A stretch of DNA of 57,519 bases, counting the filler, from Sphacelaria rigidula (Eukaryota): NCBI GenBank assembly GCA_964200075.2. It is 7 parts of 7 records of this genome, joined end to end, with 100 filler letters (N's around TTAATTAATTAA, not from the genome) between each part and the next. Parts side by side here need not be neighbours in the genome. Positions count along the whole stretch, not along the records: positions 32,927 to 41,057 come from CAXNAA020012188.1; 6 more parts are not named here. One strand, written 5' to 3'. Below, piece by piece: positions 4,742 to 41,057 of the stretch. The notes below the pieces were generated by a model, which saw only the letters and a list, made by a program, of their open reading frames with translations, did not search any database and had not been told where the DNA came from. Positions within the stretch are counted from its first letter, which is position 1. Every line of letters begins with the position of its first letter. The position numbers were made by a program, and so were the translations under genes.

Positions 4742-5852
4742 CTGTATATTGTTTTCGGAAGCAAGCAAGCACGCAAAAAAAAGGCGAACTTGCAGTCAAA
4801 CAATTGATGTTTGATTGTCGTCCATCACCTAACCCGCTACAATCCAGTCACGGTCGCAACATAAGACATACCCAATACAGATGCACCGAAACATTTTCTG
4901 GACGAAAGTCGAGAAACGAGGGAAATGAACGAAAAGAGAAGAAAACAAAATGGCACATCATCTTTTGCTAGTCACATAACCATTAACTCCGGTATTACAA
5001 TGCGTTCAAACTCACATGGAAAAAAATAATAATGTCATAAGCCAATCATCAGTCTTCCAGTATTTTAACGTGGGGCAAAAATCACTCGTCATAAGCCCCG
5101 ACCCACATACTACTTTCAAGCAGTCTCAATATACCATGATTGGTCTTTGAGCACTCCAACATGCAGAGGGGGCTTCCTCAGCAATGAGGTCAAACTCACT
5201 TTCAACACACATGTCCAATGCAATATACTACTTTCACACCCTCGACAATAGAATACATCGTCAAAAACGCATACTGCACAACGTGGAAAATGGATATTTT
5301 ACGCAGTACACTTTTAGATGCGTTTTCACCTTTTGTCCACGGTGTGACCAATATCAAGTGACTGCACTAACACCAGTATGATGGGGAATTACAAGATAAT
5401 GCGGCCATGTCGGGCTGGCGACCCAACGCACTACAGAGAGATCTCCACTGCGCTAAAACATTCGGGGGGCAATTTTCACCCCCGATATTCTTCCAGCGCT
5501 ATTATACTACTCTCACCGTGTCGAAATTGGGATCCCTGGTAGCAACCATTAACTTTTGGAAAGATATCACACCCTGGACAACAGACTAGATTGTCAGCAA
5601 GCGTACTGCAAACAGTGTGGAATCTGTTGTCGATGGCAATATACGCAATAGTCGCTGCTCTATGCAGTACACTTTTTGACATCGCAATCTGTTTTTCACG
5701 GTCTGGAAGAGGTTCTGCGTGGATACACGGGGTTCCGCCTCGAGAGCGCACTCTAGTTCCTCGATATAATGGAGAGTAGGGAAAATCATCAACGCCGGAG
5801 GGAGGGTGTTATCCTCCGCAATCACCCTTACTTTTTTCTTTTTTCTTTGTAC

Positions 5853-5948
5853 CTTGAGAAAAAGGACGTCCGGGTGAGTGGAGGCGAGTTGCTCGTATTG
5901 GGGTGCCACCCGCTTACAGGGGCCACACCATGATGCCGTGAAGTCGAC
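5853..5948 (-). CDS. Internal exon of thioredoxin-domain protein with WCGPC active site
   Basis: aaacag|GTCGAC ... CTCAAG|gtacaa; 96 nt, phase 0-0; VDFTASWCGPCKRVAPQYEQLASTHPDVLFLK. Confidence 0.93.
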
Positions 5949-6490
5949 CTGTTTGTGGAAAATGACAAAACATAGATGAGACATAAATGGCACAGGAGGC
6001 GGGAGATAGCATAGGTGAAGAGATGAGACAACAGATGCCCAGGATTTTCGCCGAGGTACCAATATATACCAGAATACACGAGGCAAAGATGTCAAGAAGG
6101 ACTTGGATTCGAATGGCGGAGAATTGACATATAAATCACAGTAGATATGAGACACGAACAACAAAAGTGGTGGTGCACAAAAAATTACAGGGCACAACAG
6201 GGGGACAAGCAGGTAGGAGACCCCAAAACGAGGTAGGTCACATAGTATCATTATTCGAGAGTTTCGGAAAATAATCAGAATTTGTTTCAGGATCAGGACG
6301 CACGAGCTTCAGGATGGAAGCTGACGTGACGTGGGTTGACGGTACTTCATTGTTCACAGCGATTGGCCGCAGGTTGCTCGACCAAATGTGCGATCAACCG
6401 TCCGATTCGACAACACATAAGTTAGCACAGCAGTGCACGGTAGCGAGTCTCTAAAACAGACAGTACATTATTGAACTGTATTGTCTCGTA

Positions 6491-12225: not shown

Positions 12226-15200
12226 TATTTTTCGCACACCAACTCGCGGGGAGAGCTCGACCGCATACACGTATGCGGGGCCGAAGCTCGAACACCGCTG
12301 GCGCCCGGACTACATCCTAGTACGCCAGCAAGACCGCAGACGCGTCTGAGATGTCGCTGTGCACTCCGAGATGGAATCGGACCATCCACTGGTCTCAGTC
12401 GCCATCCGTCTCCTCGGACGGAGCGCACCCAACCGCTAGCCGAAACCGGGAGGCGGGGATAGGGGAGTGCGCTTCGACCGCAAAACCCTCGCATCCGACC
12501 GACGCTAGAGATCGACTGTCTCACAGGCCATTATTGCCAAGCTCCTGAATGTCCCCAACTCTCCCGTAGTAATGGACGTGAACGACATGGCATCTACCTC
12601 GGCCAACGCCCTGCGACAGGCGGCCGTGGATACACTCCCTCGATGCCCGAAGAAACTCCTATCTAGAGGTTTCAATGAGTCAATTCAGGGTCAGGATTGC
12701 TTCCAATAGGCGTGGAATCTCAGGGAAAGTGTATGGAAGAAAGTGCGCGCCAACCCCAAGGACGCTGTCCTGAAGAAGGCGCTGAAGGTAACGCGCAAAG
12801 CGTTCAAATGGGTGCAGGATGCTGAGCTGCAGAACTTCGTGCATGACTTCATAGCCCGGACAGCAGAGCTTGTTCGCAAGAAGGATCAAGCAGGACTGTA
12901 CCAGCACATCAAGTCCCTGGAACTGGAAGGGGAGAAGCAGTGCGACTCAACTTAGGTCAGGAGCGCGACTGGCGAGCTGTTGCGGGCAAGCAAGCCATCA
13001 TGCAACGGTGGAAGGAGTAGTTTGAAGCACTTCTGAACGTAACCTCGCCTACGATCGACCACTCTGTCATCGATCTCATCGAACAGTTATCGGAGCACGC
13101 ACCGCTCGCGACCGAGCCCTCGATGGAAGAAGTGAAAACAGCGGTAGGCAAGCTGGCGAATGGGGAAGTCATTAGGACGAACGACATCTGTGGCGAAATA
13201 TTGAAGCTCGGCCGCACCGAAGATTCTGCCATCCTGAAGTGCCTCCACAACATCGTGCTCACCGTGTGGCGTCAGAAAGTAGTGCCGCAAGAGTGGAAAG
13301 ACACCATCACCGAGGTGTTTTTCAAGAAACACCCGCACGAATGCGGCGACCACCACGGCATTTCTCTCGGGTCCCACACGGGCAAGGCGGTACTCAAGAT
13401 AGTTGCGACTCGCCTCCGCGTCTACTGTGAGTGGAAGGAAATCCTCCCAGAAGCGCAACGCGATTTTCGACCCGACCGGTCGATAGTTGACATGATTTTC
13501 GTTGTGCGCAGGCTTCAAGAAGTAGCCAGAGAGAAGAATCCTCCGCTCTACATGGGCATCATCGACCCACTAAACGCACACGACTCAGTGAACCGCTCTC
13601 TATTCTGGAACATTCTAGCACGCTACGGTATCCCCGCCAAGATGATTTTCATCATTTGCCAGTTTCACGGCGGCATGCGGGCATGCGTATTCCTTGACAG
13701 CGGCGAGACATCTGAGCAATTCAACGTTAACCAGAGCCTCTGCCAAGGCTGTGTGCTTTCCCCCGATCTATTCAGCATCTTCTTCGCCACGGTGCTGACG
13801 GTGACGTTCGACCACTTCTCGATCACTAAAGCGGTGGCGGAGGGATTCATCAGTATCGCTGAAAGGGGCGGGAAGACCAGGGACGAGGTGAGCAATGTGC
13901 TTTGGGCCATGCTATAGGCCGACGACGCCGGCATCGATCGCCTCGCTGTCCCAAGTAAGCCTGGCAAAGATGATTGACGGTCGTCGTCGAAGTATGTGCG
14001 GCATTCGGCCTGGTTGTGGCGGAAAAGAATATAGTCACCATGAACATGCGCTCCCCGAACATGGAGGTGGATATGGTCAAGGTGGAGGCAGCGGGCAAAA
14101 CATACAAGCAAGTCGAGTTTTGCCTCTACCTTGGCGGCAAAATCAGCAGCATCGGTGATGTCGCCTGAAATCCACAGCCGCATTGGCCAGGCCTGGACGT
14201 GCTTCTACAAGTACAGCAGAGCCGTACACGACAACCCGTACATCGCCTTGGCCACAAAGGTTCGTCTCCTGAAGACCAAAGTGATCGAGGATATTCTACG
14301 CGGCTGCGTGACCTGGACGATCGCACACGACAAGTTTGGCTCGTTACGGGAGGTCATTTCCTGCTGAGGTGCCTCAAAAAGCATACCTCGAGCCGCAGCG
14401 TTCCTAACTACCACATGCTGCCATACCATGAGGTCCTCGAAAGAACTAACTGCAAGTGCATCGAGGACACCGAGATGAGGCGAACCCTCCTACATGCCAG
14501 CCGCGTCGTGCGCATGTATGATGAACGCCTCCCCAACATCGTTATGCGTGGAGTCATGGTTGGGGGGAAGACGAAGGCAGCCGACCAGCAATACGCCTAC
14601 AACACTGTATCACGGACTACTGTTCTTTGGAATAAACGCGACATCGTGGACGCAGGTTGCCCAAGATGCGTCCGAATGGTACCGAGTCGGAAAAGAGGGG
14701 GCCAAGATTTACGTGGCAGCCTGGACCAAAGCACGCCATGCTAAGGAATTGTTTGCTGTGCCACCACTAGAGTTCCCAGTGCCTACCGAAGACCTCCGGA
14801 AAATAACCAGTAGCCCATCGGGTAGTACACTCGCTATCACAGTGCAAATGCCGTCTTTACGAACACCTGTGGTAATTGTTTATGATGGTGCCTGGGGTTG
14901 TTGAGTTGACCCTCGCTTGGTGGCCATGCTAATCCCATTTTGTCGTCTGTCTTTCCTTGTATTTTCTTTGCTTCCCCTTTTCTTTCGGTACACTTTGTAG
15001 CAGATCTCAAGTTTTTTTCTCTGTGTTTTTTTCTGGTGTGTTTTTCTCCATCCCGATGTACTCGGGGAAGCAATTCCTCCCCTGTTTTTTTTTCAAGTTT
15101 CTGTTCTTATTTTCATTTTGCTCATATTTTGGTTGGTTGTTTCTGTTTCTGTATTTATTCTGGAGTCTCAGAAAAAATGATGAAGATTCTATGTCTCGTG

Positions 15201-24695: not shown

Positions 24696-27600
24696 CCGCG
24701 AGACCAAAATGAAAGGCGCGTACCAGGGGAGAGACGGGTTGATCTCTTGAGACCACGGACTCTTCCTGAAGAAGGGGAGGGTGTCATGAAGACGCATATT
24801 AGCCTGTTGACATGCCGCTTCAGACCCGCTGTCGCCTCTGGCTATGGCTTGCTTGTGTTTCGGTAGCCAATGTTGCAGGTCTGTTCAGAGTTGGTTGGGT
24901 ACGAATGTGGACCTGTATAATTACAGGGATGATACTGGCTTTGGTCGCTTTCTCAGGGCGGCGGGCCCATGGGTACGGGCCAAACTATATAACGCATATA
25001 CTAATTTCAAGTAATTCCATTCAAATTATTACCAGTCCCTCTACATTATATAACGCATTATATAACGCAAACTTGATTTTAGTATAGACTCCGTCATACT
25101 CGTGATCACGGGCCTTCTGGTCCCCGCAGCCACTGCAGCCACAGCAGCCACAGTACAGGACTGTACTGTGCTGCGGAAAGATGGTATCCAGGACACCAAC
25201 GGCCCCACAAGGAATGCTTTGTCTTTCTGTATACGGGTTGGTGTCCCCAACGTTTGCTATGAGCGTCGTCGTGCCTGCGGTATTGTTGCGGCGGCGGGGG
25301 CCGGCATTGCAGTCTCCATTTTTTGCGCTGAGCTAGCTTTCGCCTCCTGCACCCTGCACGGCTTTGGATACGGGGCATGAGATAAGGCGGTGCTATCGTT
25401 GTCGGTGTGCGTTGCTTCATGCTCTCTGATGGCATAACCCCAGAAAAGAACTGTATCGGCATTAATGCTGCTACTTTAGCTCTCTACTGTTGGCCGTTGT
25501 GCTTTTGTTCGGGATGGCTCGTGTTGAGCTGTGCCGCACAGACAGTACTCACGCGATGCCGACCGCCTGGCCAGGGTTGGCGCACCTTGCGGTGAAAATA
25601 CGGTTGGTACCGCGACAGAAATTGTTTGGAGATGCAATGGCGAAGACGACCAAATACTCTTACACACGGGACATCAGACAGCTAACGCAAACATGCATCC
25701 CTCTTTCATGTGTGATCCCGTGTGCCAGAGCACCGCCCTCCTTCGAAGGTATGCCGTGTAAGCTCGTTTCGAAGGTATGCCGTATAAGCTCGTTTCATGA
25801 TGACATGGTGCCTGTGAAAATATCATCGATGTACTGAACTGTTCTGGGCTGTAGCCAGCTAGCGGAGGGAAATGAAGCCCAGGCCGGGCCTGGACAGAAA
25901 AAAAAATCCAAACAATTCAATCTTATTGCCCTCTCTGCGGTACATGGGGCTTGAGTAGCGCACGTGTGTCCATCAACACAGAAATTTAGGGTTAAATCCG
26001 TTCGAGAATCATGGAAAACAACGAAAAAATCGATGATTTTAGTTTAATTATTATATAACGACCCGTACCCATGAATTCGGTGCCTGTTCTCACGACCAAA
26101 GCTCCCACCATCAATCACTACCTACTGCTCCACCACTGCATCCCAGCAGAAAGAAGTCTAAGCATCGGTGAGACATATTCGGCTGATTGATTGGATACTG
26201 GAGTTAGAAACAAGGCAATCAAGGAAAAGTTGAAAGGACCATCGCGTGAATTACCTGTTTGATACTCGGGCGCCGAGCCGTGTGCGGTTTCTACTAGCTG
26301 TAGCAACCTAGGGTTGTGTGCTGTGTGCTTGCCTCGTCAGCTTGTGCCTCAGATTGCAAGCTGTGTCCTCGGTTTAATAGCACTACAGCTCTTCATTACA
26401 TTTGCGTTTGACTAAGGAGCTTCTTCTTTGCAATGGCGTTTCCTTCTTGATACCGATTTGTATCCCTGCCGTCCAGCTTTGTGACCACTTTGCCCCCTTC
26501 TTTTTTCTTCGGTACAGTATATAGTCGAACGTATCCCTCTTGATAGTCAGCAGCTTCTACAAGCTTTTGCCCTGTTTCCCTTGGTAAAGAGTATTCGTGC
26601 CCTGCTACTCGCAACTTGCTGCAGTGCTTGATTGCACATCTTGTGCTGCGTGGGTTCAACGCGCACCGCTTGATTTTCAACGCGCACCGCTTGCTATTCT
26701 TGCCCTGTTGTCATTTTGTGTCATATACACCTGCACAACGCCACACGGTATAAGTTGGACTCAGTCAGGCACGATCACGCGCCACGCCATCGTTGGCTCG
26801 CGTATTTGGTCTTGTTGCCCCCTTTTCTTCTGCCAGGAGAAGTCGTCTAATACAGGTTTGTACAGAACACCAGTGCACAAGACGCGCTGTTGTTCATAGC
26901 CAGCCGCTGTCCCTGATCTGGGCTCCTGCCACGTCAGTACTCTGTTGCTCTTATTTTTTCAGTATCGATTGTACGCGACCGTTGTATCTTTCCTTCACGA
27001 AATTACTGAACAAGTACAACCGTGCTCCCACAAAGTGAACACGGACATTTGTACACGAAATTTGGACCGTTCCGGCACTTTAGCTTTGTTGCTCGTAGCT
27101 ACTTTGTTGTTGTTGTCCTCTTCTGTACTTCGCACAACCGTTGAGCAACACGGTACATCACTTTAGTAGTAACAATACACAGCACAACGTACTGTGAGTT
27201 TCTTCTCCTTTGACCGCCTCTCGAACGAACAATTGTGTTGTTCCGAGCCGGTTTCCTTGCGACAATACTCGGTAAAACATTTCAAATCTACGTTGCGTGC
27301 TCATTTGAACAGACAGCACTCGAAACCAGTGTCCCTTGCCTGTGCACTACAATTTTGTCGGCACCCACTCTCAGCGTTGCCCTTGTTGTGAACCACGTCA
27401 CCTTTGTTCCACATACATACGTTGCATCAACTCCGTTGTGTAACAAGCCTTCGCTCTGCACTACGCAGTCCGATGTCGCGGTCTACATCTCAAGCTTTGT
27501 AAAAGCTTTTGTGCTGCCTCACGCTGCACAATTTTCGTGCTCATCTGAAAGCAAGCAACTTTTTCATTTACACATCACCAGTCGTTCTTCAGATTGTGCC

Positions 27601-28021
27601 GGGATAATATAGTTATAGTCTGCATGTGACGACACACCCGGAACACGTGTAAGTTGTACGATTTTCACGTACCAACGCTATTACAGACAATCGGGTCTTC
27701 GCTTTTCTTCGACGACATTGGTCTGTTTTGTACCAATCCCGAGATCCGTTGATGGCTATTACCGCAACAACTTAATCAAGTTGTATTGACCAGACCCCGG
27801 ACATAGTTGTTACATACAGAAACTCGCTTGAACAAATTACTCAAGTGAATCAGGTCCCACGGTCCTCTCAGGCGCTATTAGGCTTCGTTATCCCGTATTT
27901 CCGGCTACAAGCTTCGGCGTTTGCACGTAGAATCTCTTGGTGTCACGCTCCTTTGATTAGAGCCCGTAGAACAGACACACTGCCCCTGCCTTTTTAAGCA
28001 CAAAGGTTGCGTACGATTATC

Positions 28022-31000
28022 ATGTCGCACAGAAATAACGCTGGCTCTTCCCCCCAATGGGGAAACCAATCGCTTCGTCGGACCCGGAGTCAAACTACTG
28101 GCGGTTCAAAATCTTTCAAGATGAATGTGACGTCACCGCCAACTCGTCGCCGCATGTATGCGAGCGCTGTTCGATCTTCGGGATCTGAAGACCAACTTTC
28201 GAGCGATGCCCGTTCTTCAAGGCTTGAAGACACGACTTTGACGCCGAGACCTGTTCTCTCACGTTCCGACTCGGACCGAGAGGACAAGGTAGTGCAACCG
28301 GCTGAGTCATTGCTTTCTGACGGAAAAGTCAGTGGGCCCATAACGGTGGATTCCGTTCCACCCCCCTTGCTACGTTCTGTTCGTCCGAATCCCAATGTGG
28401 AATCAGAAGTCAGGATTGTGCCCCCAGCTGAGTCGTTGCCCCTGGGCACACGTGTCCAGCTTGGCCCTGTAACGGTTGCTTTAACCGTGGCACCCCGTCG
28501 TTTGACGGCTGACAACTCTCGAGGCGATTCTGCTTACGAAGCTTATCGCTTCTGGAGCAAGAGACTTTGTCACACGGGCTGCTTCCGTTACGGACCCCCT
28601 TCGCACGACTCTCGATAGTCCCATGCGCCCTACTGCACAGTCTAATGCCGAACCGGCAGTTGCGTTCATGCATGCTGCCATACAAACTCTGCATCGCACC
28701 TCATCGGCGTCTTCGCCATCGCCAGCGCCAGCTCTAATCGAGGCATTTACGGCTTTTTGCCACGCCACGCTACAAGATCAACTGGCGTCTGCTCATGTGC
28801 AGTTCAGTGATGATTCTGCACCTGCCACGCCCAAACCCGTATGTCTGGAGCCCCGTTCAGCGATATCGCGCTCTCCGTTCGTCACTCATGACAAGTTCAA
28901 TGAACATGGGTCCAGCCCTTCCTCAACGTCGCACCAGAGCCTTACTCGCGCTTGTAACCGGCGCCGCACACTGAGACTTGGTCACGACCACGTCTCCCGT
29001 TCTGGCAGTTCTAAGGGCAAGTCCCAGCAAAGCTTGAATTCATTACGCGTTTCTACACGCCCGAAGAACATCACTCATGGTTACACTTATGACGGTAGTT
29101 CCCGTCACAGTTCCAATTCATCGCGCGCTCCGAAGCGCCCGGTGAATGCTGACTGTGAACGTACTCACGAGGATGCCTCGCGGCACATATCAAGTTCTTC
29201 GCGCGTTCACTCGCGCTCAATAAACACCGATCATGCACCCTCGCGCACCTCTCCTGCTCCGCATCTGTCACGCAGCCGTCATGTACGCAATTATAACACT
29301 GTACATACTGATGATTTCCAAAACATATTTCCGGACATGTCACCGGCTCCGGAATCCTCCGTTGAAGGATCCGGCCGCACCTCATCGCAAAACCAACGAC
29401 CACGCACTGACCGCGAACCACCTTCCCGCTCCGATGCTGCGCTTATTTGTTCTCTTCAACAACGCTTGACAGAACTTGAGAGACAACTGTCTACCATGGG
29501 CACTTCCATATCCGCTGCCGCCGCCATGAAGCCCGCTGGCGCTCCTGCAGCTACTGCTGCCGCTACCGTGGCCGCTGCGCCTTCAGCCGCCCCCGCGACG
29601 GCTCCTCCAACCGCCGCCGCTCCGTCTGCCGTCGACACGAACGCCGATCGTGGTCCCACCACTGCCCCCGAGCGCTCGCTCCCGTCCGTGGAGGTTTATC
29701 CCTCCGCTCGGCGACGAGCACTGCCCCACCGCCCTGCTTTTATGGCTGTTCACCAACCGACCCCGTGCGGAACAGCAGCAATCAATCGATGACTGCATCG
29801 AAGGCGCCTGCATTGGCCCAGAACATACTTGGTCAGCAACGTGACGCCGCCGCTGCCCGCCTCCTTCTGGAGGAGCACGCAGATACGCTCAAAGATCTTC
29901 AGCGGCAGGCCTCCCATGCCTAATCCACGAGCACGGCGGCGCACCGAGCGCTGCAGGAGGGCCGTACTGCGGCCGTGGCGGTCCAGAGACGGGCTCGAAG
30001 ATCATGTTCGGCGGACGACTCAAGCAGCGGACTCGTCGGTGGCGCGCCTATCCGATCATCAAGCCTCTCCGTCTTCCGCCAACCACGTGCTCAGAACCCA
30101 CCTGCCGACGCCCAACAGATCGCCTTACGTTATTCCACGCAAGTCCGACAGGGCGTCGTCTGCTGCGGCCCCTGCCGCCAGCACGACGCATCCAACACCG
30201 CTACCGCAAGAAGTTAGCTCGGTGCCGAGCGCTGTTTCGGTGCAAGACTTGCGACTCGTGTCCCACGAACGAGAATGGCTTTCTCGTCCTGTGACCACTT
30301 ATACCGGTCCTTTTGAACGCCGAAACCACCTCCACTGTTCCCAAAACGCATGGTCCGTGTTCTCACAACGTATGTTCTACGCTGTGGGGGTTTACGTCGA
30401 ACAAAACGGCTTCCTCCCCAAACAGGGCGTCTCGGTGCTCACCTTGGGCCAACTGGTCCTGCAGACAATCATTGGCAGTCACCGGGATCACCAAACTTGC
30501 GTTGACGCGGTCATCCAACTTTTTGCGGCGCTTCGCGCCGCCTACAACACTTATCATCTCGGCGCCACCATCGACGGAGACGAGAATGAAAATGGGTGGA
30601 CTCCCGTAACATCCAATTGCTGGGGTCAGAAGAAGAATCACAGGCGCGACGACGATGACCACGATGGAGGGAATTCACACCGCTGCCATGCTGGTGGGGG
30701 ATCCTCTTCGGGCGGTTCCGGACCGGACCGCCCGCCTCGCAAACCGCACCAAACAAAACACGGAGGTAATTCCTCCGGTTCATGGGCACCCGGCTGGAAC
30801 AAGTCTGACACAGATTTTCCCGCTTCGTGCTGGGCGACCCCCAGGCAAGTGATTCCTAAGTTAGCTGATGTTTCGGCCCGCGTTCCAGGTTTTTCCGATA
30901 CGGATACACCTGACCGTTCTTTGTCTTCTACTGCAGCCCGCGCCTAAGCAACCGCTGCGGCTGACAACGAACGTTCCGAAGCTAGCAAAAAAGCAGCTTC

Positions 31001-32570
31001 CGATAGAGCTGAGTCTGCCCGAGTAGCTGCAATACGGAGACAGTATATTCAGATGGATGTGAAACAACTCTGGCACATCAAAACCATGCCTGCCGCGGAT
31101 AACGAAGATTCGGGCCAGTTTACTTCTGCCCTCATCACGTCCATCCGCCGCACTGTTTGTAACATCCTTCACTTGGCGGATGTGAATGGCACACAACGTT
31201 TCGAAGATTCCGACTGGGTAGAGGGCTGGCAGACTCCCTTGCACAAAGCGATGCATCGATCGATCAGCCGCCGCTCTCCCGACCTCACTGCTTCCTTAAC
31301 GCAGGTTCTCGACGGCTTCCTCGCCGAGATGGACCCGGACCGTGCCAAGGGGAAGACAGGCCCGGTATTACTCTTTGATTTGGAGAGGCGTCTGATCGGT
31401 TATTTCGATAAAGGTGACCAGGCCAGTGCCATCCAGAGGCTGAGCTCTTTTGTCGTCGCCTCTGATGTTCCCTTCGCGGATTATCTCCGCGAATTTAAGC
31501 TTTTGGTTTCGGGTACGACGGGTGTCGGACGCCAGAACGGACCAAGCGACGCAATGTCTCAGACTTATGTTCGCAATAGCGTTGCTCAACAGTATCCGGC
31601 TCTGATGTCGTCGTTGTTTCCGGGTGTCTTGGCGCATCGCGAGGTGCCTTACGCCTCCGTTGATACTACGTGGTCTGCTTTTGTACACCAAGAGGGTAAT
31701 CTAGCGCCTGCCATACGTGGCAAACCTTCAACGTATGTGCGTTCACAAACTACGGTTGTATCCTGCGCCCATGCTCAAGGGGCTCGTGGCGGGAATTCGA
31801 GCTCGTCTCGCGCGTCATGGACCCCCGACTCAGTCGCCGGTTGAGTTATGCATGTTCAGGGTACCAGAGATGCACTTAGAGCAAGTTTTGATGGCTGGCC
31901 GTTCTACGAGGGAACTTGGGATGATATTTATTTGTCTTCAACAACGGCATTCATAACCGATGACCCCTATTTGTAGAACCCACTTCTTTCGTCTTCCGCT
32001 AGACGCACTGCCTTCAGCAGCCATGCCAACAGTTGCATCAACTAAAGTGTTCAAGGCCACAACATGCGCGAGTGTGACAGTCCATGCATCAATGCCTTTG
32101 ATCTTATGAACCCGGAATTGCAGGACAATGAACCCGCGTGGCGCCGATGGCAAAAACGCATGCGCGACCATCGTCCACCAACTCGAAATTACCGCAACAA
32201 TTCGAACCAAAGTGACAACAAAAGCTCTAATCGCGGTCGCCGACACAACAACAATCACGGAAGCCCTCGCCAGAGTGATCAAAATTCTTGCGACAACAAA
32301 CGTTCCGCTGATAGACATCAGCGGACGGGACCGACACAAAGTTCTAATCCCAACACTAGAACCCCTGGTATCTTCACTACGGATCGCTTAGATCCATGAC
32401 GTGCCGACGCCGGCGTTCTTCGGTCTTCCACGCCGTCGATAGCACGAGCGAAGACTTTTTCAACATAGCCCGCGGAGTCCGTGTTTAAAATTGCTCACGC
32501 CACTCCCCCGGCACTATCCAGCAGCGTAACTGATGGCCCTTCGTATCGACCTCCATCTCCACCCTCCACA
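28022..32570 (+). mobile_element. Decayed Ty3/Gypsy retrotransposon: very long gag with CCHC knuckle, UGA, start of pol
   Basis: From ~30080 onward colinear with 36011-38500, which continues into protease and RT; knuckle CIN*SVQGHNMREC near 32035-32076; copy-specific stops and frameshifts. Confidence 0.8.
32397..32456 (+). promoter_or_regulatory. Candidate gag-pol UGA readthrough signal (stop + pseudoknot), copy 1
   Basis: TGA 32397-32399; CGGCGT(32411-16)/ACGCCG(32430-35); GTCTTC(32423-28)/GAAGAC(32450-55); conserved at 38329. Confidence 0.6.
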
Positions 32571-32826
32571 CAATGCACCGAAAACCGGGTCTCGCGTACA
32601 ACAGGCTCACAAGCCTTTTCATGGCCGAGAAAAAAAGCATCCGCAAGTCGTTCGAACGCCTGCTACTGCTCAACCATTCGCTGGAGGAGCAGAAAAAGTC
32701 GCTCCAGGCTCTTCACCACGCGGGGACTTTTCCCAAAAGTCTCACGATTCAGCCCGCAACAAGTCGAGTTCGAGCAGAGTTACCCTATATAGATGGAGGT
32801 AGAGCTTATGAACAAATGCTTGCCGA

Positions 32827-32926
32827 NNNNNNNNNNNNNNNNNNNNNNNNNNNNNNNNNNNNNNNNNNNNTTAATTAATTAANNNNNNNNNNNNNNNNNN
32901 NNNNNNNNNNNNNNNNNNNNNNNNNN
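32827..32926. other. Artificial contig spacer
   Basis: Same 100-bp structure. Confidence 0.98.
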
Positions 32927-33114
32927 GGCGCGGGCGCCCCAGCCGCGCGGCAAGCAGGCGACGGCGGACCGCCCCCCCCCCCCCCCCACCCACCCACGCC
33001 GGCGGTGGGTGTAAGCATGATCATGAGTACACCCACCCACGCCGGCCTCGTCATTTCCTTTGACCTCATTTGTTTTGCTTCCCCGGCCTCCATTTTTCCC
33101 CCAGCAGCCTATCA

Positions 33115-33160
33115 GTCTGATCCGGCTAGAATCCGGCGTGCTCCGTCCCGGCTTTGTAGA
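33115..33160 (-). repeat. Partial copy of the CTACAAAGCCGGGACGGAGCACGCCGG repeat family
   Basis: Reverse complement shares this core with 1209 and 49471-49522. Confidence 0.75.
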
Positions 33161-33586
33161 AGCGAACCCTCGATTGAGTTGGCGTCGGTTTGCGATGATG
33201 CTATAAATTGCATATGTTTTGAATATAATACTCTGCGTGCACAGCTGGGTATAGTGGTCAAACTTTATACAAAACATGCTCGGTTGACAGCCATTTTTTC
33301 AGATGTTTCGGTTACCACGAGTCATCACAGTTTTCGGTTGACCCCAAACTTTGGGAACTGAGAGACATGAGTATACCCGACACAACTTTGTAGAAAAGAA
33401 TATTATCAACGACCATTTATTTTTAAACGAAACAAGGGGTCACCAGCCTCGGGGGTCCTCCAAGTGTACAGCTCCCGGTTCTCGTTCTTCGATAATATCG
33501 CTCGACTGAACCGATTCGGATCATTACAATGAACAATTCGGTGCCTTCAATTTTTCTGTTTTCTCAGTATTCATTGCGCCACAGCC

Positions 33587-35509
33587 GAAAACCCGTACTT
33601 TTCTGCTATATGCGGTCAATAACACCCCTCGATATACGGGTTTTCACTCCGTATCGTTTCGGCAACACAAAATTGGCACGAGCTGGTCCAGCCTAGAAGC
33701 GGACTTGTGGGTTGCAGGCCCCGCCTCTACTCAATTTTGATAGTTGGACTTTCAAATGCGGTACAGAAAATAAGTACTGCATGATGAAGGAAAAAAATCG
33801 GGACGATGAGTATTCATTTTTCATGAATTGAAGGCAATAACCAGTATACCACTTTCAGTGAAATATCCGTTGATTCATGAAAAACAAAATTACCCATCGT
33901 CCCGAGTTTTTTCTTTCACCATGCCCAATTCATTTTCCGTACCAAATTCGAAGGCCAAGTCTCAAAATGGAGGTGAGGCAGGGCAATTGCGAAACCGGGC
34001 CGGTCGAAATTCGGAACAGTATTTTGCAGGTCACTTACCGGCCCAGGTTTACGTTGTCAAATTTTGTGTGGGACCTGACTAGGGCATACAAAATAACAGC
34101 CGATCATCGAAAATGAGGATAGAGCTTTGCCTTGAGGATTGGAACCCGGAGGATTAAAATCTTTGCATCCACACCAAACCTTCGGAATATTATTTCACTC
34201 CCTCACCTACTGATGGCTCATGACAACTACTGCACGCCCTACGAACTTGGACTTCGATAACCGAAATGTTGGGGTCCGAGGTGAAGAAACAGTTTTGGGG
34301 AATTTGGGTGATTCGATCGGATCGCCGAAACTCCCCGAAATTGGTTCTTCACCTAGGACCCCAACATTTCGGGTATCGAAACCCAAACTTGTATGGCGTG
34401 TAGTACTTGTTGTCAATAGCTACCTGTAAGCGAAGGAATGGAACCATTTTTCGAAGATTTGGTGTGGATACGAAGATTTCAATTCTCCGGGTTATCATCC
34501 TCAATGAAAAGCTCCATCCTAAATCTCGATGATTGGCTCTTGAATAATGAAGCGGGTTGCTTTTTGATTTTTTTCCATGAGTTAATTAAGCACGTTTTAT
34601 TACGAGAACGTCCTTTACTCTCGAGAAAAAAACGAAGGCCCACTTTACTTCCATTTTCAGCATTCTTCCGCGGATCTCCATGCTACGTTGCAAATCACGA
34701 TTCTATGAATTGCGCTGAAGAATGATATAAGGACCGAGAGTAAATCCATGAAATAACAACCGATCCTCAAAAATGGGGTCGAACACAAAAATGAGGTTCA
34801 ACTGGCATAACTAATTTTCAGGTATGGCGCGAAACAGTTACATCAAGGGAAAGCATCTTCCCCCCGAAAACATTTGTAGCAGTGTATTTCTCAATTTTTT
34901 GTTCAACACCATTTTTGAGCATCCGCTGTTGTTCCAAGGAAAAAAATAGCATGTAACCAATACTGAGTGATTTACGGGAGGACCGGTCATCGGGGGTCCC
35001 GCCACTTTTCAGCCCAGATCAGATTCTGACTCTTCGAACAGCCGTTCCTAAAAATTGGGATCCAACGCTGAAATGAGGTTCAACTCGCTTTCGAAAAAAC
35101 GAGAATTCACGTCAGGCTGCTCCTTACAGCAAACAAACAAAAAAGTCCTGTAAGGCTCTTTGGGAACCGTTCAAAACTCCTGTTCAGAACTGCCTTTTTG
35201 ACCCATGTCCGGCGTTTTACGCCTGAAAAGAGGGTCAGGCGGATGTTGATGCCTTGGAATGACTTCCTTGCTCTATTTAGCGAGGTCGTTCCTCTTTTCA
35301 TCAAGGAAAAAAAAAGGAGGTCGTTTCAGGGCAACTTTGCATTTCCCGCTGGCCGCACTTTCATTTTGAGCCAAACACGGGCTTTCAACAAAAAACGGTC
35401 AAGCGATAAAAAAACAGGGGGAAATTTGACCACTTGACCGTTTTTTACTAAAAATCCGTATTTAGCCTCATGTGGCAAAAAAAACAAATGTGCGGTCAGC
35501 GGGAAATGC
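33587..35509. repeat. Cluster of at least six consecutive inverted repeats, including a ~440-bp imperfect palindrome
   Basis: Hairpins at 33587-33645, 33760-33943, 33992-34050, 34098-34538, 34755-34933 and 35339-35509. Confidence 0.85.
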
Positions 35510-35511
35510 CA

Positions 35512-35992
35512 TGAGATGAAGAGGCGTTTGCAGTACTTCCTTCCTCAGACTCGCAGGCCACGAGCATTGTGTAGATATAGAATTTGTATGTGTAGATACA
35601 CGGAACCTCGGAGAGGTTCCGTGGGGCAGATACGCTTTGGGGCAGGTGTCGATCACATTGGTGTTCCCCAAATCCCGAGGTGCTACACGCCTCTGAGAGT
35701 AGACGGTCAGTTGAGGGAGAGATTTCGACCTCCCCTCCCCCACGTCCATCACTCTCTCAGCGTGGACACTCAGCCGTCAGCCACTGCACTGCCTCAGGTG
35801 ATTATTGGTGAAAGCTGGAACTAATAAAGGGAGAATCAGCTTCCTGTTTGAGCTTTCTATTCGATCCAATAGGTGCGAGAACCCTTTGCGCGTGAATCTT
35901 TGGAGTACCGGACACTCCACTCCTTTGTGTTAATGCTGTACAGAGTAGGGTTGGCTGATACACAAGACGCTAGCTTAGCCAACTCCGTCACA
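35512..35992 (+). mobile_element. Probable LTR
   Basis: Ends ...TCCGTCACA two nt before a PBS-like TGG; AATAAA at 35823; the 5' end (TGAGATGAA) is only a degenerate inverted match, so the start is uncertain. Confidence 0.5.
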
Positions 35993-35994
35993 GT

Positions 35995-36010
35995 TGGTGT
36001 CGACAGTAGG
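35995..36010 (+). promoter_or_regulatory. Primer-binding-site-like sequence TGGTGTCGACAGTAGG (tRNA-Ser-like)
   Basis: TGG follows CA+2 nt; complementary, with two transitions, to a eukaryotic tRNA-Ser-type 3' end CCTGCTGTCGACGCCA (recalled, not searched). Confidence 0.5.
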
Positions 36011-39000
36011 TCACCAATCCGGACACTTTCGTCGTCGGCCGCGTGTTCCTACCCTGCACCTACAACCAACTCCAATTATCGCATTCCCCGGCGCGCGGAG
36101 CAAGTTACGTATGCGGCGGCCGCTGGCTTGACATCATCTCTTCCACCAGCCCCGGCCGCATACTCAGCCGATTGGATCCCGGCGACCACATCGTCGCCCC
36201 CCGCTGCGCTTCAGGGGCTGGACCTACAAGACTACGAGCGGTCATGGCTGTCTCTGACGATTAGCGAACTTTCGGGGCCACACACTCCGCGCAACGTGCT
36301 GCGTTGCTCACTCACCGCACGAGAGTCTCTTACTTTACCCATCAACAGTGTCGTCGTGCCCTTTCTCCATCAAGGAGGGACGCTTCCGGACAGCGACCCC
36401 AGCAAGATCCCCCTCGGGCAATTGGTGCTTTATCTCACCATCGGCACCGGCCCCGACCGTGCCGACTACCACGACGCCGTGTTTACAGTTTTCGCGGCGC
36501 TACAGGCCGTGTATGACACTGCCTCATCTGCCGACGATGGAGGTTCGGCATACTTATCGCCGCAATGTTGACAACGACTATGACGAAAATCATGCTGGAG
36601 GTGCCCCCGTCGAGGCGGCAACGGACATTCCACCGACCACGCCAACAAGCACAGCGGACCCAACGCCGCAGTGCCCGCGGCAATAAACGCCCCGGATATC
36701 ATTCCTCCAGCTCTTCGGCGAGAAATTTCCGGAATCGCCCTGTACAACCGCTCCCCGCTTCAACTGTTGCCAGGCAAGTTACCCCTCGTTTAGCAGACGT
36801 ATTTGGACGTCTCTTGGGCCTTTCGGATAGCGACAGTTCGGATCGCCCACTGTCTTCAACATCGGCTAGATCTTTGGCTGCTGCGGCCACCGCTAAACAT
36901 CACGTCGAAGCCCAGAAAGCCGACGCCGTGGCACGTAAAGAGTCATCTCGTGTAGCCGCCATAAAAAGCGAACATCTGCAGATGGATGTAAAAAACTTTG
37001 GCATATCAATACGATGCCTGCCGCTGATCACGAAGACTCCGGTCAGTTTACTTCCGGACTCATTTCATCTATTCGTCGTACGATGAGAAACATCTTAGAA
37101 CGAGCCGATGCCACGGGAGTGCCATGTTTGGAGGATTCCGGCTGGGTTGACGGCTGGCAGGCTCCTTTGCGCGAAGCGACGCATCGTTCCATCAGTCGCC
37201 GTTCGTCAGATGTTGCCGCGTCATTAACGCAGATTGTCGACACATTCTTTGCCGCGCTGGACACGTACCGTTCCAACGGGACGCGAGCGCCGGTTGTTCA
37301 GTGATCTGGAGAGGCGCATTATAACTTATTTTGATACCAGCGACCAGGCCGGCGCATTCAAGCGCCTTAGTTCCTTCACGGTAGCGTCGAACGTTCCTTT
37401 CGCAGACTATCTGCGCGAATTCTAGCTTTTGGTTTCCAGCACCATTAGCTCTGGCGGTCAACACGGCCCGAGTGATGCCATGTGTCAAACGTGTGTTCGG
37501 AAAAGTATCGCGCAGCAGTTTCCTACGTTGATACCGTCTTTGTTCCCTGGTGCCCTGGCGCACAAAGAGGTGCCTTACACCTCTGTAGACGCAATGTGGA
37601 CTGCATTCGTAGATCACGAAAGCAATTTGACGCCTGCCATGGGTGGTACACCCTATTCTTCCATGTCTTCGCACTCTTACGCTGCTCTCTCCGCGACCAC
37701 CCCTGGTTCTCGTGGACGACAACAGACTTCGTCTCGTAGTACGTGGACACCCAAATCTGTTGGAGGATCAGTCATGAGAGTTGAGAGTCCGAAAAACTCC
37801 TCTCAGGCAAGCTTCGATGCTTGGCCTTATTCTACAGAGACTTGGGACGATGTCTACATTGTTTCGACTACCGCGTTTATCACGGACGACCCACGCTTGT
37901 GGACACCCTTGCTTCCGCCTTCGGATCGCAAGGACGCATTATGTCGCCATGCCAACACATGCATTAGCTGCAATGGTCATGGTCGCAGTATGCGTGACTG
38001 CCTCGAAGTTTGTTCCAACACTTTTCAGCTCATGAACCCTGAATTCCAGGACAAAAAGTCAGCATGGTGCCGGTGGCAAAAACGCATGCGAGATTACCGT
38101 ACACCTATTCGCACTTCTCGACAACACTCCAACGTTCACGGCACCATTCGCTCAAATCGCGAACGCCGCCCTGTCCATCATGACAGTTCTGGTTCTCGTC
38201 GGAAAGATAGCTCTTTCCGTCACCATCACAATTCAACTGACAGCCATCAGCGCACGGGGCCTCTTCGAATAAACTCGAACCCCAACGCCAGAAACCCTGG
38301 CTCTTTCACGACAGATCGTACTGATTCATGACGCGCCGACGCCGGCGTTATAGAGTCTTCGGCGCCGCCGATTGCACGGACGAAGACCACTACAGCACAC
38401 TCCGCGGAGCGAGTGATGAAACTTTCTCACTCCGTCTCCCCGACATTTTGTAAGAATTCAAAAGACGGCCGTTCACATCGAACCCCGTCATTATCCCTAT
38501 ACACAAAGCGTAACAGTTGTGCTGACTCATCACTCAGCTCTACGCCCGGATCTGGACTCGGTCCTCCAGACCTCATCGTGAATCTGAGGTGTGGGAAAAC
38601 CAACCGCCCGTCCCTGAGGCTCAGGCTTCCCTCAGTGGCCGCATGCACAGGCAGTAGTAGACCTCCTTCGACTGATTCACGTGTTGCTGGTCCAAAATTG
38701 ACCGCTTCGGATCATCCAACAACCACCCAGTCTGATCGAGCTCGTTCCTCGCGTTCCTCGTACCACGCGAAGCTACCCCTGAATGGTTCCCACGATCACC
38801 ACTCCAATCTACCTTCAGCTATGACATCTCGACCAAACTTGCCAGCGGACAAGCCACAAATTTCGGGAGAGCATGTCCCGATGCTGACCCCATCCATCCA
38901 ACTGGACGCAGTTGTGGTTTTCCAAGGCATCTTGGAAGTTCCCCGCCCTTCGTCACGGCGAGAGAGGAAGCCCCGTCAACGTGCCCCCAAAGAAGAGAGC

Positions 39001-40990
39001 GCACAAGCACGCCCACCTACCTCGAGCGGAAAATCTCGACCTCATTCTCTCCACAATGCGAAGACTTTGAGCTCGACGGCATGACTAGGCATCACCGTGG
39101 AATTAAAATCGGATATTTCTGACGTCACTGCCTCTTCAATGGATGACACCACACAGCATGAACCTCCTTTCGATGGTGACCCTACCTCTCCGAAGGCTAT
39201 CATCTACGAAATTGATCATAGCGACGACACAGGCCGTGCTCCACACAGGAATCCATCACAACCTATACCACCAGGAGACACACCTGATCTCCCGGCAGAT
39301 CACCCGCCGTCTGTTTTCGCCGTCAACCCGGCCGAACCAGACCTATTCAATTTGCCTGAACATGGTCCCGACCTTATCGGTGGTAAGTTTCTGTTGATCC
39401 AGCCACCTTCACCACCTGTCGCGCTAGACTGCGGACCCTATGCTACCGCACCTGCCAAATGCGTATCCTTGTTGGATAGTGGCAGCCCACAAACATTCAT
39501 AGGCGAATCAATGTGACAACATATGATACAGCACGGCGCTGCTTCGAAAATTTGTGAAATCACCACCCAACCCCTTGTACCGGGCGGTTTTGGTGACTCC
39601 AACACACCCTTGACAACCCGGAAATCAGTACGTCTTAGTGTACAATTTTCCCACAACGACACACGTTCTACCAGTCTCGCAGTATGGGCACATATTGTCC
39701 CCGACAGCACTATGAACCACGCCTTGTCATTCGGCAGCGACAGTTACGTGCGGTTTGATCAACGAACTTACCGCACGCTCCCACCGCTCTCGTCACATCT
39801 ACGCCTTGCGGTGAACTCAACCTCGAACACTTCGGTACACTCCACGGCGCCTTGGCCTATCGCGAAAATGATCAAGTCACTGGAGCTGCTTACCACCTGC
39901 GTTATGCAGGTAGTGCGGGCGTTACCCTCTCCGACGATCCTCAACTCTTAGAAGTTGCTCTCGTCCACCGGAATGACATGCCTGCACTTACAGGCCACTA
40001 CCTCACAGAATTCCTCCCTAAGGTTGCTGCGCCTGTCGGCACTGCGCATTTTTTCTCCGCAGGAGAACAACTGTTGCCTCTTACAGGACACGCTAACTTG
40101 GACCCTGGTGATGTTTTGGGCATCGCTGCGGCTCCCCTCATGCGCGTTCCGCTCCAGACCTGTGTCGCTGACACCCCGACGCCCGACGACGCGCCCCCGA
40201 CGGTCGGTTCTGTCCATCGCGTTGATGAGCGTTATTTCGACCTTCGCTCCTCCTCCCCGCCACAGGTTAACACGGTGGATCCTGTTCGCCTACCGTCCAA
40301 TCTTCCTGATGACGTGCTGCAACGCCCATCACCAGAGTCTCGGACAAGTTTTTTGCAAATGTGGCACCAACTACCGCCCCATTTACGTGACATCAACTTT
40401 GACCTTCACGAACTCGGCTGGGAACCCGCTGTAATCAAGGACTTGTACAATGTTCCACTGGAATACCAAGATCACTTTTTCCGCACCAAGACGGATTCAG
40501 GGCATTGTAAAACGCTGCCCTTCGAGATCACCTTGCAACCCGGTGTTGCGCCAATTTCTTCTTGGCCATATCGGACAAACCCCCTCCTCAATAAAAAAAG
40601 TCAATGCCATTTTGGATGCATACTTGGGAGCCGGTTTCATCCAACACTCGCCCTCCCCATGGGCTTCACCTCTCGTGGTTGTCCCCGGAAGGATGGGAAC
40701 ATACGTATCACGGTCAATCACAAACGGCTGAATCGCGTCACTGTCGTGGGAAAACTCCTGATTCCCCGCATTGATGAAGTTTTCGACTCACTCGGCGAAG
40801 GAAAATGTTCAGCACCTTCGATCTCGCTTCTGGATTTTTCCAGAACGCCATCCACCCTGATACAGTCCCTCCAACAGCGTTCTGTACTTCTTCAGGACTC
40901 AACGAATGGCTCCGTATGCCACAAGGCGCCGCCACTGTACCAGGTTGTTTCCAACGCCTGAAGCAACGAGTTACCGACGGCCTCGAACAC
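36011..40990 (+). mobile_element. Decayed Ty3/Gypsy gag-pol (gag, aspartic protease, N-terminal part of RT)
   Basis: Knuckle CISCNGHGRSMRDC; protease LLDSGSPQTFI; RT PYRTNP, SPSPWASPLVVVP, KDGNIRITVNHKRLN, IPRIDEVFDSL, FSTFDLASGFFQ, TAFCT..G..EWLRMPQG; truncated before YxDD; stops and frameshifts. Confidence 0.93.
38329..38388 (+). promoter_or_regulatory. Candidate gag-pol UGA readthrough signal (stop + pseudoknot), copy 2
   Basis: TGA 38329-38331; CGGCGT(38343-48)/GCGCCG(38362-67); GTCTTCG(38355-61)/CGAAGAC(38381-87); downstream pol ORFs lie in the gag frame. Confidence 0.6.
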
Positions 40991-41057
40991 CTCATAACAG
41001 CAAATTGTGAGAATTGAGGTTTAACTCTGAATTGAGGCTCAAGTGGGCAACCCAACT

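Follow-up and report, generated by a model that had tools for sequence, protein, structure and literature searches.

The window analysed here, 57,519 nt of DNA from Sphacelaria rigidula (assembly GCA_964200075.2) composed of seven contigs of about 8.1 kb each with N spacers between them, carries two copies of a Ty3/gypsy-like retroelement whose gag frames end at the same UGA codon. Copy 1 lies in the contig at 24696-32826 and copy 2 in the contig at 32927-41057, and all features of the two copies given below are on the plus strand. The shared UGA is a conserved and functional gag terminator of the family. As far as sequence comparison can tell, its read-through is most likely the route to the protease-polymerase part of the element (Pro-Pol), a reading to which we assign a probability of about two in three. 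The further proposal that an RNA element placed directly after the stop helps this read-through is more tentative, and we put it somewhat short of an even chance.

The two gag copies end at the same stop codon

A sequence-only reading of this DNA had proposed that two diverged gag copies terminate at the same codon, and the alignment bears this out. Copy 1 ends with ...TTDRLDP at a UGA at 32397-32399 (context CCA-UGA-CGU) and copy 2 ends with ...TTDRTDS at a UGA at 38329-38331 (context UCA-UGA-CGC). The copies align over about 1.5 kb with 67% identity (blastn) and, at the protein level, from 30237 (copy 1) and 36206 (copy 2) to 32558 and 38490, respectively. Within the aligned 1.5 kb the TGA is the sole in-frame stop common to both copies and, as had also been claimed, the other stops are copy-specific. 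The copy 1 stops at 31842 (TGA), 31974 (TAG), 32043 (TAA) and 32466 (TAG) face the sense codons TCA, TGG, TGC and CAC in copy 2, and the copy 2 stop at 37423 (TAG) faces AAG in copy 1, while the copy 2 stops at 37084, 37096 and 37225 lie in a region shifted by one base against the register of copy 1. A 21-mer taken from the TGA onwards was found at just two sites in the window, those of copies 1 and 2.

Both copies are dead relics of one retrotransposon family of the Ty3/gypsy-like type. In the frame of the shared stop, the translated stretch contains 13 stops in copy 2 and seven in copy 1, copy 2 has a frameshift near 37298 with respect to copy 1, and the zinc knuckle is broken in both, by a His to Arg change in copy 2 (knuckle at 37960-38001) and by a TAA in place of the second Cys codon in copy 1 (32034-32075). 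The decayed gag of copy 2 spans 36206-38328, the last 301 codons (37426-38328) being open. That of copy 1 (28506-32396) is made up of three consecutive open reading frames (ORFs) from 28506 and is traceable over about 1300 codons, its homology to copy 2 starting at 30237.

The shared TGA might then be a decay mutation without function, passed down from an ancestor already dead or arisen by two separate hits (e.g., CGA to TGA), a possibility to which the many other stops and indels of both copies and the CG directly after the stop lend some colour. We rejected it as very improbable on the evidence of the copy-specific position of all the remaining stops and of the relatives of this gag. A profile search over 1.84 billion representatives, with E up to 0.001, retrieved 855 gag relatives (clusters at 50% identity). 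P0003, 57-59% identical to copy 2, and P0015, 64% identical, are open throughout and end with ...FLTDRTDP and ...FLTDRNDP, respectively, at the same residue as the window stop. Invariance of the stop had been put forward as a check, and at the protein level it holds in four of four close copies, which all end at this residue. P0003 is a protein of 334 aa without a start Met, encoded on a contig of 1202 nt and carrying an intact CCHC knuckle (CINCNGHGHSMRNC); it appears to end at a stop codon and not at the contig end.

More distant relatives gave the same picture. The C-terminal motif NPNxRxPGxF is present in 13 of the 153 relatives fetched, some of them only ~27-35% identical to copy 2, and 13/13 of these proteins, down to ~27% identity, end 3-11 residues past the motif. 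Being the sole stop common to the two copies, with relatives ending at the same place, the UGA is thus a functional terminator of the family and not shared decay. In annotation, a UGA that ends gag in the family studied should be taken as a feature rather than as evidence of decay, and gag should be joined to pol over it.

In copy 2 the motif reads NPNARNPGSF and lies at 38278-38307; its copy 1 counterpart is at 32346-32375, and the relatives concerned run from P0003 to P0145. It may serve for cleavage or belong to the recoding signal. A 2A-like skipping motif within ...NPGSF was considered and rejected by eye, the Asn not being conserved in the relatives and NPGP being absent.

We call this protein gag on the grounds of its CCHC knuckle and its position upstream of putative protease and reverse transcriptase (RT) motifs. 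The knuckle (CX2CX4HX4C) is nearly invariant in the family alignment of the relatives, and its support from databases is weak, with zf-CCHC matched in one of 63 members (E=0.0027) and retroviral nucleocapsid chains at E ~0.04. Neither the pieces nor the relatives matched a Pfam gag family, a profile search of the PDB with gag matched the knuckle alone, and a search of the Atlas gave no gag match above 0.89 and none for the copy 1 tail. The gags of the family are unusually long, 810-855 aa and in one case 1507 aa with the gag core at the C-terminus (P0007, P0014, P0017, P0030, P0033). A third partial copy lies at the end of contig 3 (23317-24530); it has ~60-65% protein identity to 28638-29790, corresponds to the N-terminal part of the long copy 1 gag frame and stops short of the shared UGA.

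The gag frame continues past the stop

As the sequence-only reading had noticed, the homology between the copies continues in the gag frame beyond the UGA, as RADAGV(I/L)(E/R)SS(A/T)P(P/S)IAR(T/A)KT, and can be followed to ~38490 in copy 2 and 32558 in copy 1. Both copies keep the same frame across the 53 aligned post-stop codons, the copy 1 stretch (32400-32558) being interrupted by its copy-specific TAG at 32466. Copy 2 has a post-stop coding region at 38332-39750, in which the gag frame contains two stops in 473 codons versus 20 and 19 in the other two frames, and it is open for 250 codons directly after the UGA. Two candidate protease motifs, LLDSGS (39469-39486) and ALSFGSDS (39721-39744), were recognised by eye in this same frame; Pfam, searched with both copies translated through their stops, returned no match, and no protease family even at E up to 10.

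The first 19 post-stop codons differ between the copies at 5, 1 and 6 sites in codon positions 1, 2 and 3, respectively, a pattern from which it is likely that these codons are translated. The encoded peptide is itself conserved, with 14/19 residues identical as compared to 157/297 in gag. Taken together, the arrangement gag-UGA-pro in one frame is well supported by the sequence of copy 2, which is one decayed copy.

The claim that pol lies in the gag frame stood in part. The ORFs starting at 38413, 39097 and 39523 and the protease LLDSGS are in this frame as had been stated, but the RT region of copy 2 (39759-40996, which comprises the RT start only) is mostly open in the -1 frame. The protease-frame and RT ORFs overlap by ~190 nt (39759-39951), and no X XXY YYZ heptamer was found in this overlap. 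The change of frame between the putative protease and RT most probably reflects an indel acquired during decay, with a second recoding site as the alternative; it is seen in one copy.

The -1 frame of the RT ORF and its 190-nt overlap could also be taken to mean that ribosomes enter pol through a frameshift or a bypass (hopping) close to the gag end, and that the in-frame layout of copy 2 is an accident of indels, of which this copy indeed has several, namely the one near 37298 that shifts the gag frame and those behind three or more changes of frame in RT. There is moreover one X XXY YYZ heptamer, A AAC CCT at 38292, 37 nt before the stop. It was found in copy 2 only when 150 nt upstream were scanned, copy 1 having A ACC CCT instead; the earlier statement that no slippery heptamer precedes the stop is supported for conserved sites. 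The A-site codon of this heptamer is not of a kind known to slip. Downstream of the UGA, copy 2 can be read for seven codons in the +1 frame and for ~40 in the -1 frame before a stop is reached, and copy 1 for ~29 in the -1 frame, in contrast to the gag frame with its 250 open codons and its agreement between the copies over the 53 aligned ones. We therefore regard frameshifting or bypassing as improbable, and a -1 frameshift at the gag-pro junction was rejected for the lack of a common heptamer and the closure of the -1 frame after ~30-40 codons.

Past the end of its homology to copy 2, copy 1 (32560-32826) changes to another frame, with an ORF from an ATG at 32621 (MAEKKSIRKSFERLLLLNHSLEEQKK...) that runs off the contig. 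This ORF had no Pfam match better than E=0.064 and no Atlas match, and it may stem from an insertion nested in the element or from a downstream module of another kind.

In copy 2, RT is identified by its relation to P0141. Three pieces of copy 2 match this protein in three frames (40579-40701, 40620-40805 and 40802-40996), the last with 54% identity in RT; the match stops at 40996, and the contig itself runs to 41057. P0141 in turn matches Pfam RVT_1 (E=1.2e-18), and its best matches of solved structure are the Ty3 RT 4ol8 (3.6e-23) and the Ty3 Gag-Pol 7q5b. The copy 2 piece 40778-41014 reached RVT_1 directly with E=2.4e-6 and 27.8 bits, just below the cut-off of 29.6. Judged by these matches, the RT of copy 2 is Ty3-like. 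The putative protease precedes RT in copy 2 and no integrase motif was seen between them, nor was any direct repeat resembling a long terminal repeat (LTR) found in either contig; LTRs and integrase presumably lie outside the contigs. P0141 itself (392 aa) has its gag core cut within the zinc knuckle and joined directly to RT, and it looks like an internally deleted element.

A conserved and foldable stretch follows the stop

The context of the stop is of the leaky kind in both copies, xxA-UGA-CGx, in agreement with the earlier remark on the C after UGA. According to the available part of PMC3159437, the longer pattern xxA-stop-CGx-xxx-xxG is invariant in 35 plant-virus read-through sites, UGA-CGG/CUA is the alphavirus-type context, and a 3′ stem follows after a spacer of 7-12 nt. 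Here the +3 codon is GAC and ends in C, not in G as in those viral sites.

The stretch after the stop had been described as more conserved than its flanks, and this was confirmed: sliding 60-nt identity is 0.82 as compared to 0.65 and 0.63 at the sides, with 48 of the 60 bases of 38329-38388 identical between the copies. Peaks of 0.85, 0.82 and 0.80 occur also inside gag. Numbering from the U of the UGA, three stems can form in both copies, i.e., a hairpin H1 (5-10 with 15-20), a stem S1 (15-20 with 34-39) and a stem S2 (27-32 with 54-59, extended to 7 bp in copy 2). S1 and S2 are the two interlocking stems that had been proposed, CGGCGU/RCGCCG and GUCUUC/GAAGAC. In copy 2, S1 spans 38343-38367 (arms 38343-38348 CGGCGU and 38362-38367 GCGCCG) and begins 11 nt past the stop, the GC-rich spacer being CGCGCCGACGC / CGUGCCGACGC in the two copies; S2, the outer part of a candidate stem-loop SL2, spans 38355-38387 (arms 38355-38361 GUCUUCG and 38381-38387 CGAAGAC), with an inner 3-bp helix pairing 38368-38370 with 38377-38379. 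In copy 1 the candidate pair occupies 32411-32455, with S1 at 32411-32416/32430-32435 (CGGCGU/ACGCCG) and S2 at 32423-32428/32450-32455 (GUCUUC/GAAGAC). H1 of copy 2 (38333-38348, GCGCCG/CGGCGU, 6 bp with loop ACGC) competes with S1 for the CGGCGU arm. The alternative long hairpin CGUGC/GCACG, by contrast, can form in copy 1 and not in copy 2. The substitutions fall mostly in the loops, as had been noticed: one of the 12 differences in 57 nt lies within a stem, and it is compatible with pairing (UG/UA).

We then asked how unusual this arrangement is. Two interlocked joint stems of at least 6 bp were found at one locus in 1267 alignment windows, and shuffling reached such a pair in 17 of 5000 column shuffles and, where the conservation pattern was retained, in 24 of 5000. 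Scored by a crude energy function that we made ourselves (stacking + 9.6 + 0.1 per loop base), the S1/S2 combination comes out as the best knot of each copy, at -14.9 and -14.2; none of 33 control windows reached this energy, the best control being at -11.0. The stretch after the stop has also the lowest minimum free energy (MFE) among the control windows, and its RNAalifold consensus energy is below those of all 55 control windows of 72 nt and all 23 of 162 nt.

Part of this could follow from the protein. It is possible, although on the whole unlikely, that read-through is set by the short context A-UGA-CG alone, that the conservation over 57 nt is due to the encoded peptide (e.g., the fusion's N-terminus or a site cut by the protease), and that the stems are a by-product of GC-rich Ala, Gly, Pro and Ser codons. 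The conserved peptide and the avoidance of codon position 2 described above would be expected in that case, and short contexts have been credited with read-through elsewhere: a single C after UGA is reported as sufficient in Sindbis virus in the accessible portion of PMC2194720, and fission-yeast Ty3/gypsy elements have just an 8-nt context in common according to the part available of bioRxiv 10.1101/2022.12.06.519325. What speaks for an RNA element beyond the peptide is the behaviour of the synonymous sites. Third codon positions are changed in 0/8 cases in the stems versus 6/11 outside them (Fisher p=0.017; gag background 173/297), and synonymous recodings of the stretch reach an equally stable knot in only 5/400 and 13/400 trials for the two copies, to which the lowest MFE and consensus energy of all control windows can be added. 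On comparative grounds we consider it likely that the stop is followed by a conserved structured element. It may take the form of a nested fold or of a knot, the pseudoknot being a plausible model.

A perfect 10-nt palindrome, ACGCCGGCGT, is present in both copies (38339-38348 and 32407-32416) within H1/S1 and mostly inside H1; it could serve an RNA-RNA contact (dimerisation) rather than, or besides, recoding. In Rfam, searched over 24696-41057, no family reached its gathering score, and two snoRNA matches within 38200-38600 were at chance level (E=1.9 and 4.1).

Read-through as the probable route to Pro-Pol

Pro lies in the same frame as gag and no conserved start codon lies near the stop; read-through is the most likely route. 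In the mechanism that we propose, a small share of ribosomes would read the UGA as a sense codon, giving a Gag-Pro(-Pol) fusion, and this would be favoured by the leaky context A-UGA-CG and by the conserved structured RNA of ~57 nt after the stop. A ribosome standing on the stop would cover the first 11-12 nt and melt H1, leaving CGGCGU free to pair with RCGCCG (S1); S1 together with GUCUUC/GAAGAC (S2) would then place a knot or a compact fold at the mRNA entrance. In its most specific form, this would be an independently evolved signal like that of gammaretroviruses, with UGA, an 11-nt spacer and an H-type pseudoknot, in which the switch from H1 to the knot on arrival of the ribosome sets the Gag:Pol ratio; as a structural model we hold this to be doubtful.

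The UGA could also be an ordinary terminator, with Pro-Pol made apart from a spliced or internally promoted RNA, by internal initiation or by termination-reinitiation, and the conserved stretch would then be a promoter, an entry site, an acceptor or a packaging signal. Precedents for this exist in other elements. In the available text of PMC2194720, copia uses splicing, and the gag-pol junction of Tca2, flanks included, gave no read-through with a dual reporter used in Saccharomyces cerevisiae and has a minor promoter. It is in part on account of this look-alike junction, which failed in yeast and hid a promoter, that we leave independent expression of pol a chance of about one in four. Throughout the family, gag forms an ORF of its own and fusion proteins were not found, an ATG lies in frame at codon 29 past the copy 2 stop (38416), and the conserved palindrome could point to an RNA-RNA contact instead of recoding. 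On the other hand, the ATG is not shared by copy 1, which has none in its 53 aligned codons, and no splice-site-like sequence common to both copies was seen by eye around the stop. Independent expression would also have no need for pro to be in the gag frame or for a coding-like conserved peptide right after the stop, and Tj1, which is laid out alike, functions with a pol ORF that has no AUG (PMC4600332, in the part available).

Several further observations weigh against read-through assisted by an RNA element. For the element, all statistical thresholds were chosen after the case had been seen, the RNAalifold margins over the best control are small (-15.45 vs -14.35 and -28.25 vs -26.85), and the single-sequence MFE z-scores (-1.02 and -0.72) are not significant, which would suit a read-through set by the short context. 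The same is true of the pairing changes. Covariation of the stems, which had been named as a check, did not appear in the two copies: 0/12 S1/S2 pairs are changed on both sides, 11 being invariant and one changed on one side, in a comparison of two sequences that are both decayed and related by descent. Nested folds compete with the knot and do as well or better, the MFE structure of copy 2 (-21.7) being H1 plus SL2 and the RNAalifold consensus likewise nested, with a hairpin at 5-20 and a stem-loop at 27-59, i.e., H1 and SL2. This consensus fold has one two-sided change, at columns 40/51, and the 162-nt fold has six; we discarded both as background, since at least one such change was found in 37/55 controls and the six were equalled in 2/23.

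For the frame, the region 39760-40960 of copy 2 has 0 stops in 399 codons in the -1 frame versus five in the gag frame, and the in-frame putative protease was read in copy 2, the homology of copy 1 to copy 2 being lost ~160 nt past the stop. No database protein matched the post-stop peptide. As to the relatives, they were compared as protein sequences. Two of them, P0069 and P0027, extend 148 and 108 residues beyond the last matched position of the gag profile; their tails carry neither a pol motif nor NPNxRxPGxF and are read by us as probably frameshifted. In favour of a conserved stop, on the other side, no gag among the best 150 of the 855 relatives was found to run on into pol, and among the longer proteins no gag-pol fusion was found, which is weak evidence. 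A protein-guided scan of genome contigs matched 154 stretches, none of them a relative, and a scan for relatives with a DNA pattern gave 0 matches.

Other features of the window

Upstream of the copy 2 gag, a 52-nt repeat unit is present twice (34755-34806 and 35037-35088, 81% identity). A weak third repeat (65%) at 40996-41047, at the end of the contig, has its first base where the RT match to P0141 stops; it may have arisen by chance or mark the border of a further insertion. Contig 2 carries an ORF with an RVT_1 domain (13021-13914, E=3.3e-13) that is unmatched by the gag family studied and belongs to a different retroelement. An ORF with a thioredoxin domain on the minus strand (5586-6305, E=6.1e-12) is the sole host-like gene that was recognised in the window.

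Comparison with known systems

The sequence-only reading had taken Ty3/gypsy elements to use a single ORF or frameshifting as a rule, which would make an in-frame stop unusual. This does not hold, an in-frame TGA between gag and pol being known from the fission-yeast elements Tj1, Tosmo1-3 and Tcry1 of the Tf1/sushi group. In Tj1 the TGA is in frame, pol has no AUG and removal of the stop abolishes transposition, as stated in the part available of PMC4600332; Tosmo1-3 and Tcry1 have the 8-nt context GAA TGA CT in common according to the accessible text of bioRxiv 10.1101/2022.12.06.519325. The family described here resembles them in being of the Ty3/gypsy type, with gag and pol in one frame and a single TGA followed by C. 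It differs from the fission-yeast elements in having (U/C)CA UGA CG(C/U) followed by ~57 conserved and foldable nucleotides, no downstream structure being mentioned in the available parts of those sources. Its gag is also very long and escapes Pfam.

Retroelements with an in-frame stop between their ORFs are cited further in the same accessible sections of bioRxiv 10.1101/2022.12.06.519325 (Leng et al., 1998) and of PMC2194720 (soybean SIRE1). Tca2 of Candida albicans, which is of the Ty1/copia superfamily, comes close in having gag-UGA-pol in one frame with a predicted pseudoknot after the stop, and differs, apart from the superfamily, in its 8-nt purine-rich spacer; its failure in the yeast reporter cautions that a prediction of this kind may prove wrong. 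The paper of Leng and colleagues is presumably the one on Skipper of Dictyostelium.

The layout of murine leukaemia virus (MuLV) is similar in that a single stop separates gag from pol within one frame and is followed by a spacer and by two interlocking stems; in MuLV a minor fraction of the product is the Gag-Pol fusion (PMC3159437 and PMC2194720, in the parts available). The signals differ in that MuLV has UAG, an 8-nt purine-rich spacer and an experimentally proven pseudoknot, whereas the family has UGA, an 11-nt GC-rich spacer and predicted stems, and we claim no similarity of sequence. The sites of alphaviruses and of tobra-, peclu-, furo-, pomo- and coltiviruses, as described in the accessible text of PMC3159437, are similar in xxA-UGA-CGx, in a structure starting 7-12 nt downstream, a range that includes the 11 nt found here, and in synonymous-site conservation. 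Their stems are of 10-12 bp or more, with long loops and compensatory changes, unlike the stems of 6-7 bp without two-sided changes found here.

In-frame gag-pol TGA codons are already known in Ty3/gypsy elements, and a stop followed by a pseudoknot is known from MuLV and has been proposed for Tca2; the combination of UGA and an RNA element would open no new class of mechanism. No description of structure-stimulated read-through in a Ty3/gypsy element was found in open-access titles and the starts of abstracts, which is not a claim of absence, and the family may be a rare case outside the retroviruses of a downstream RNA fold that helps read-through. If confirmed, a large uncharacterised family (855 clusters at 50% identity) would join Tj1, Tosmo1-3, Tcry1 and the other members of the short list of retroelements that set Gag:Pol with an in-frame stop.

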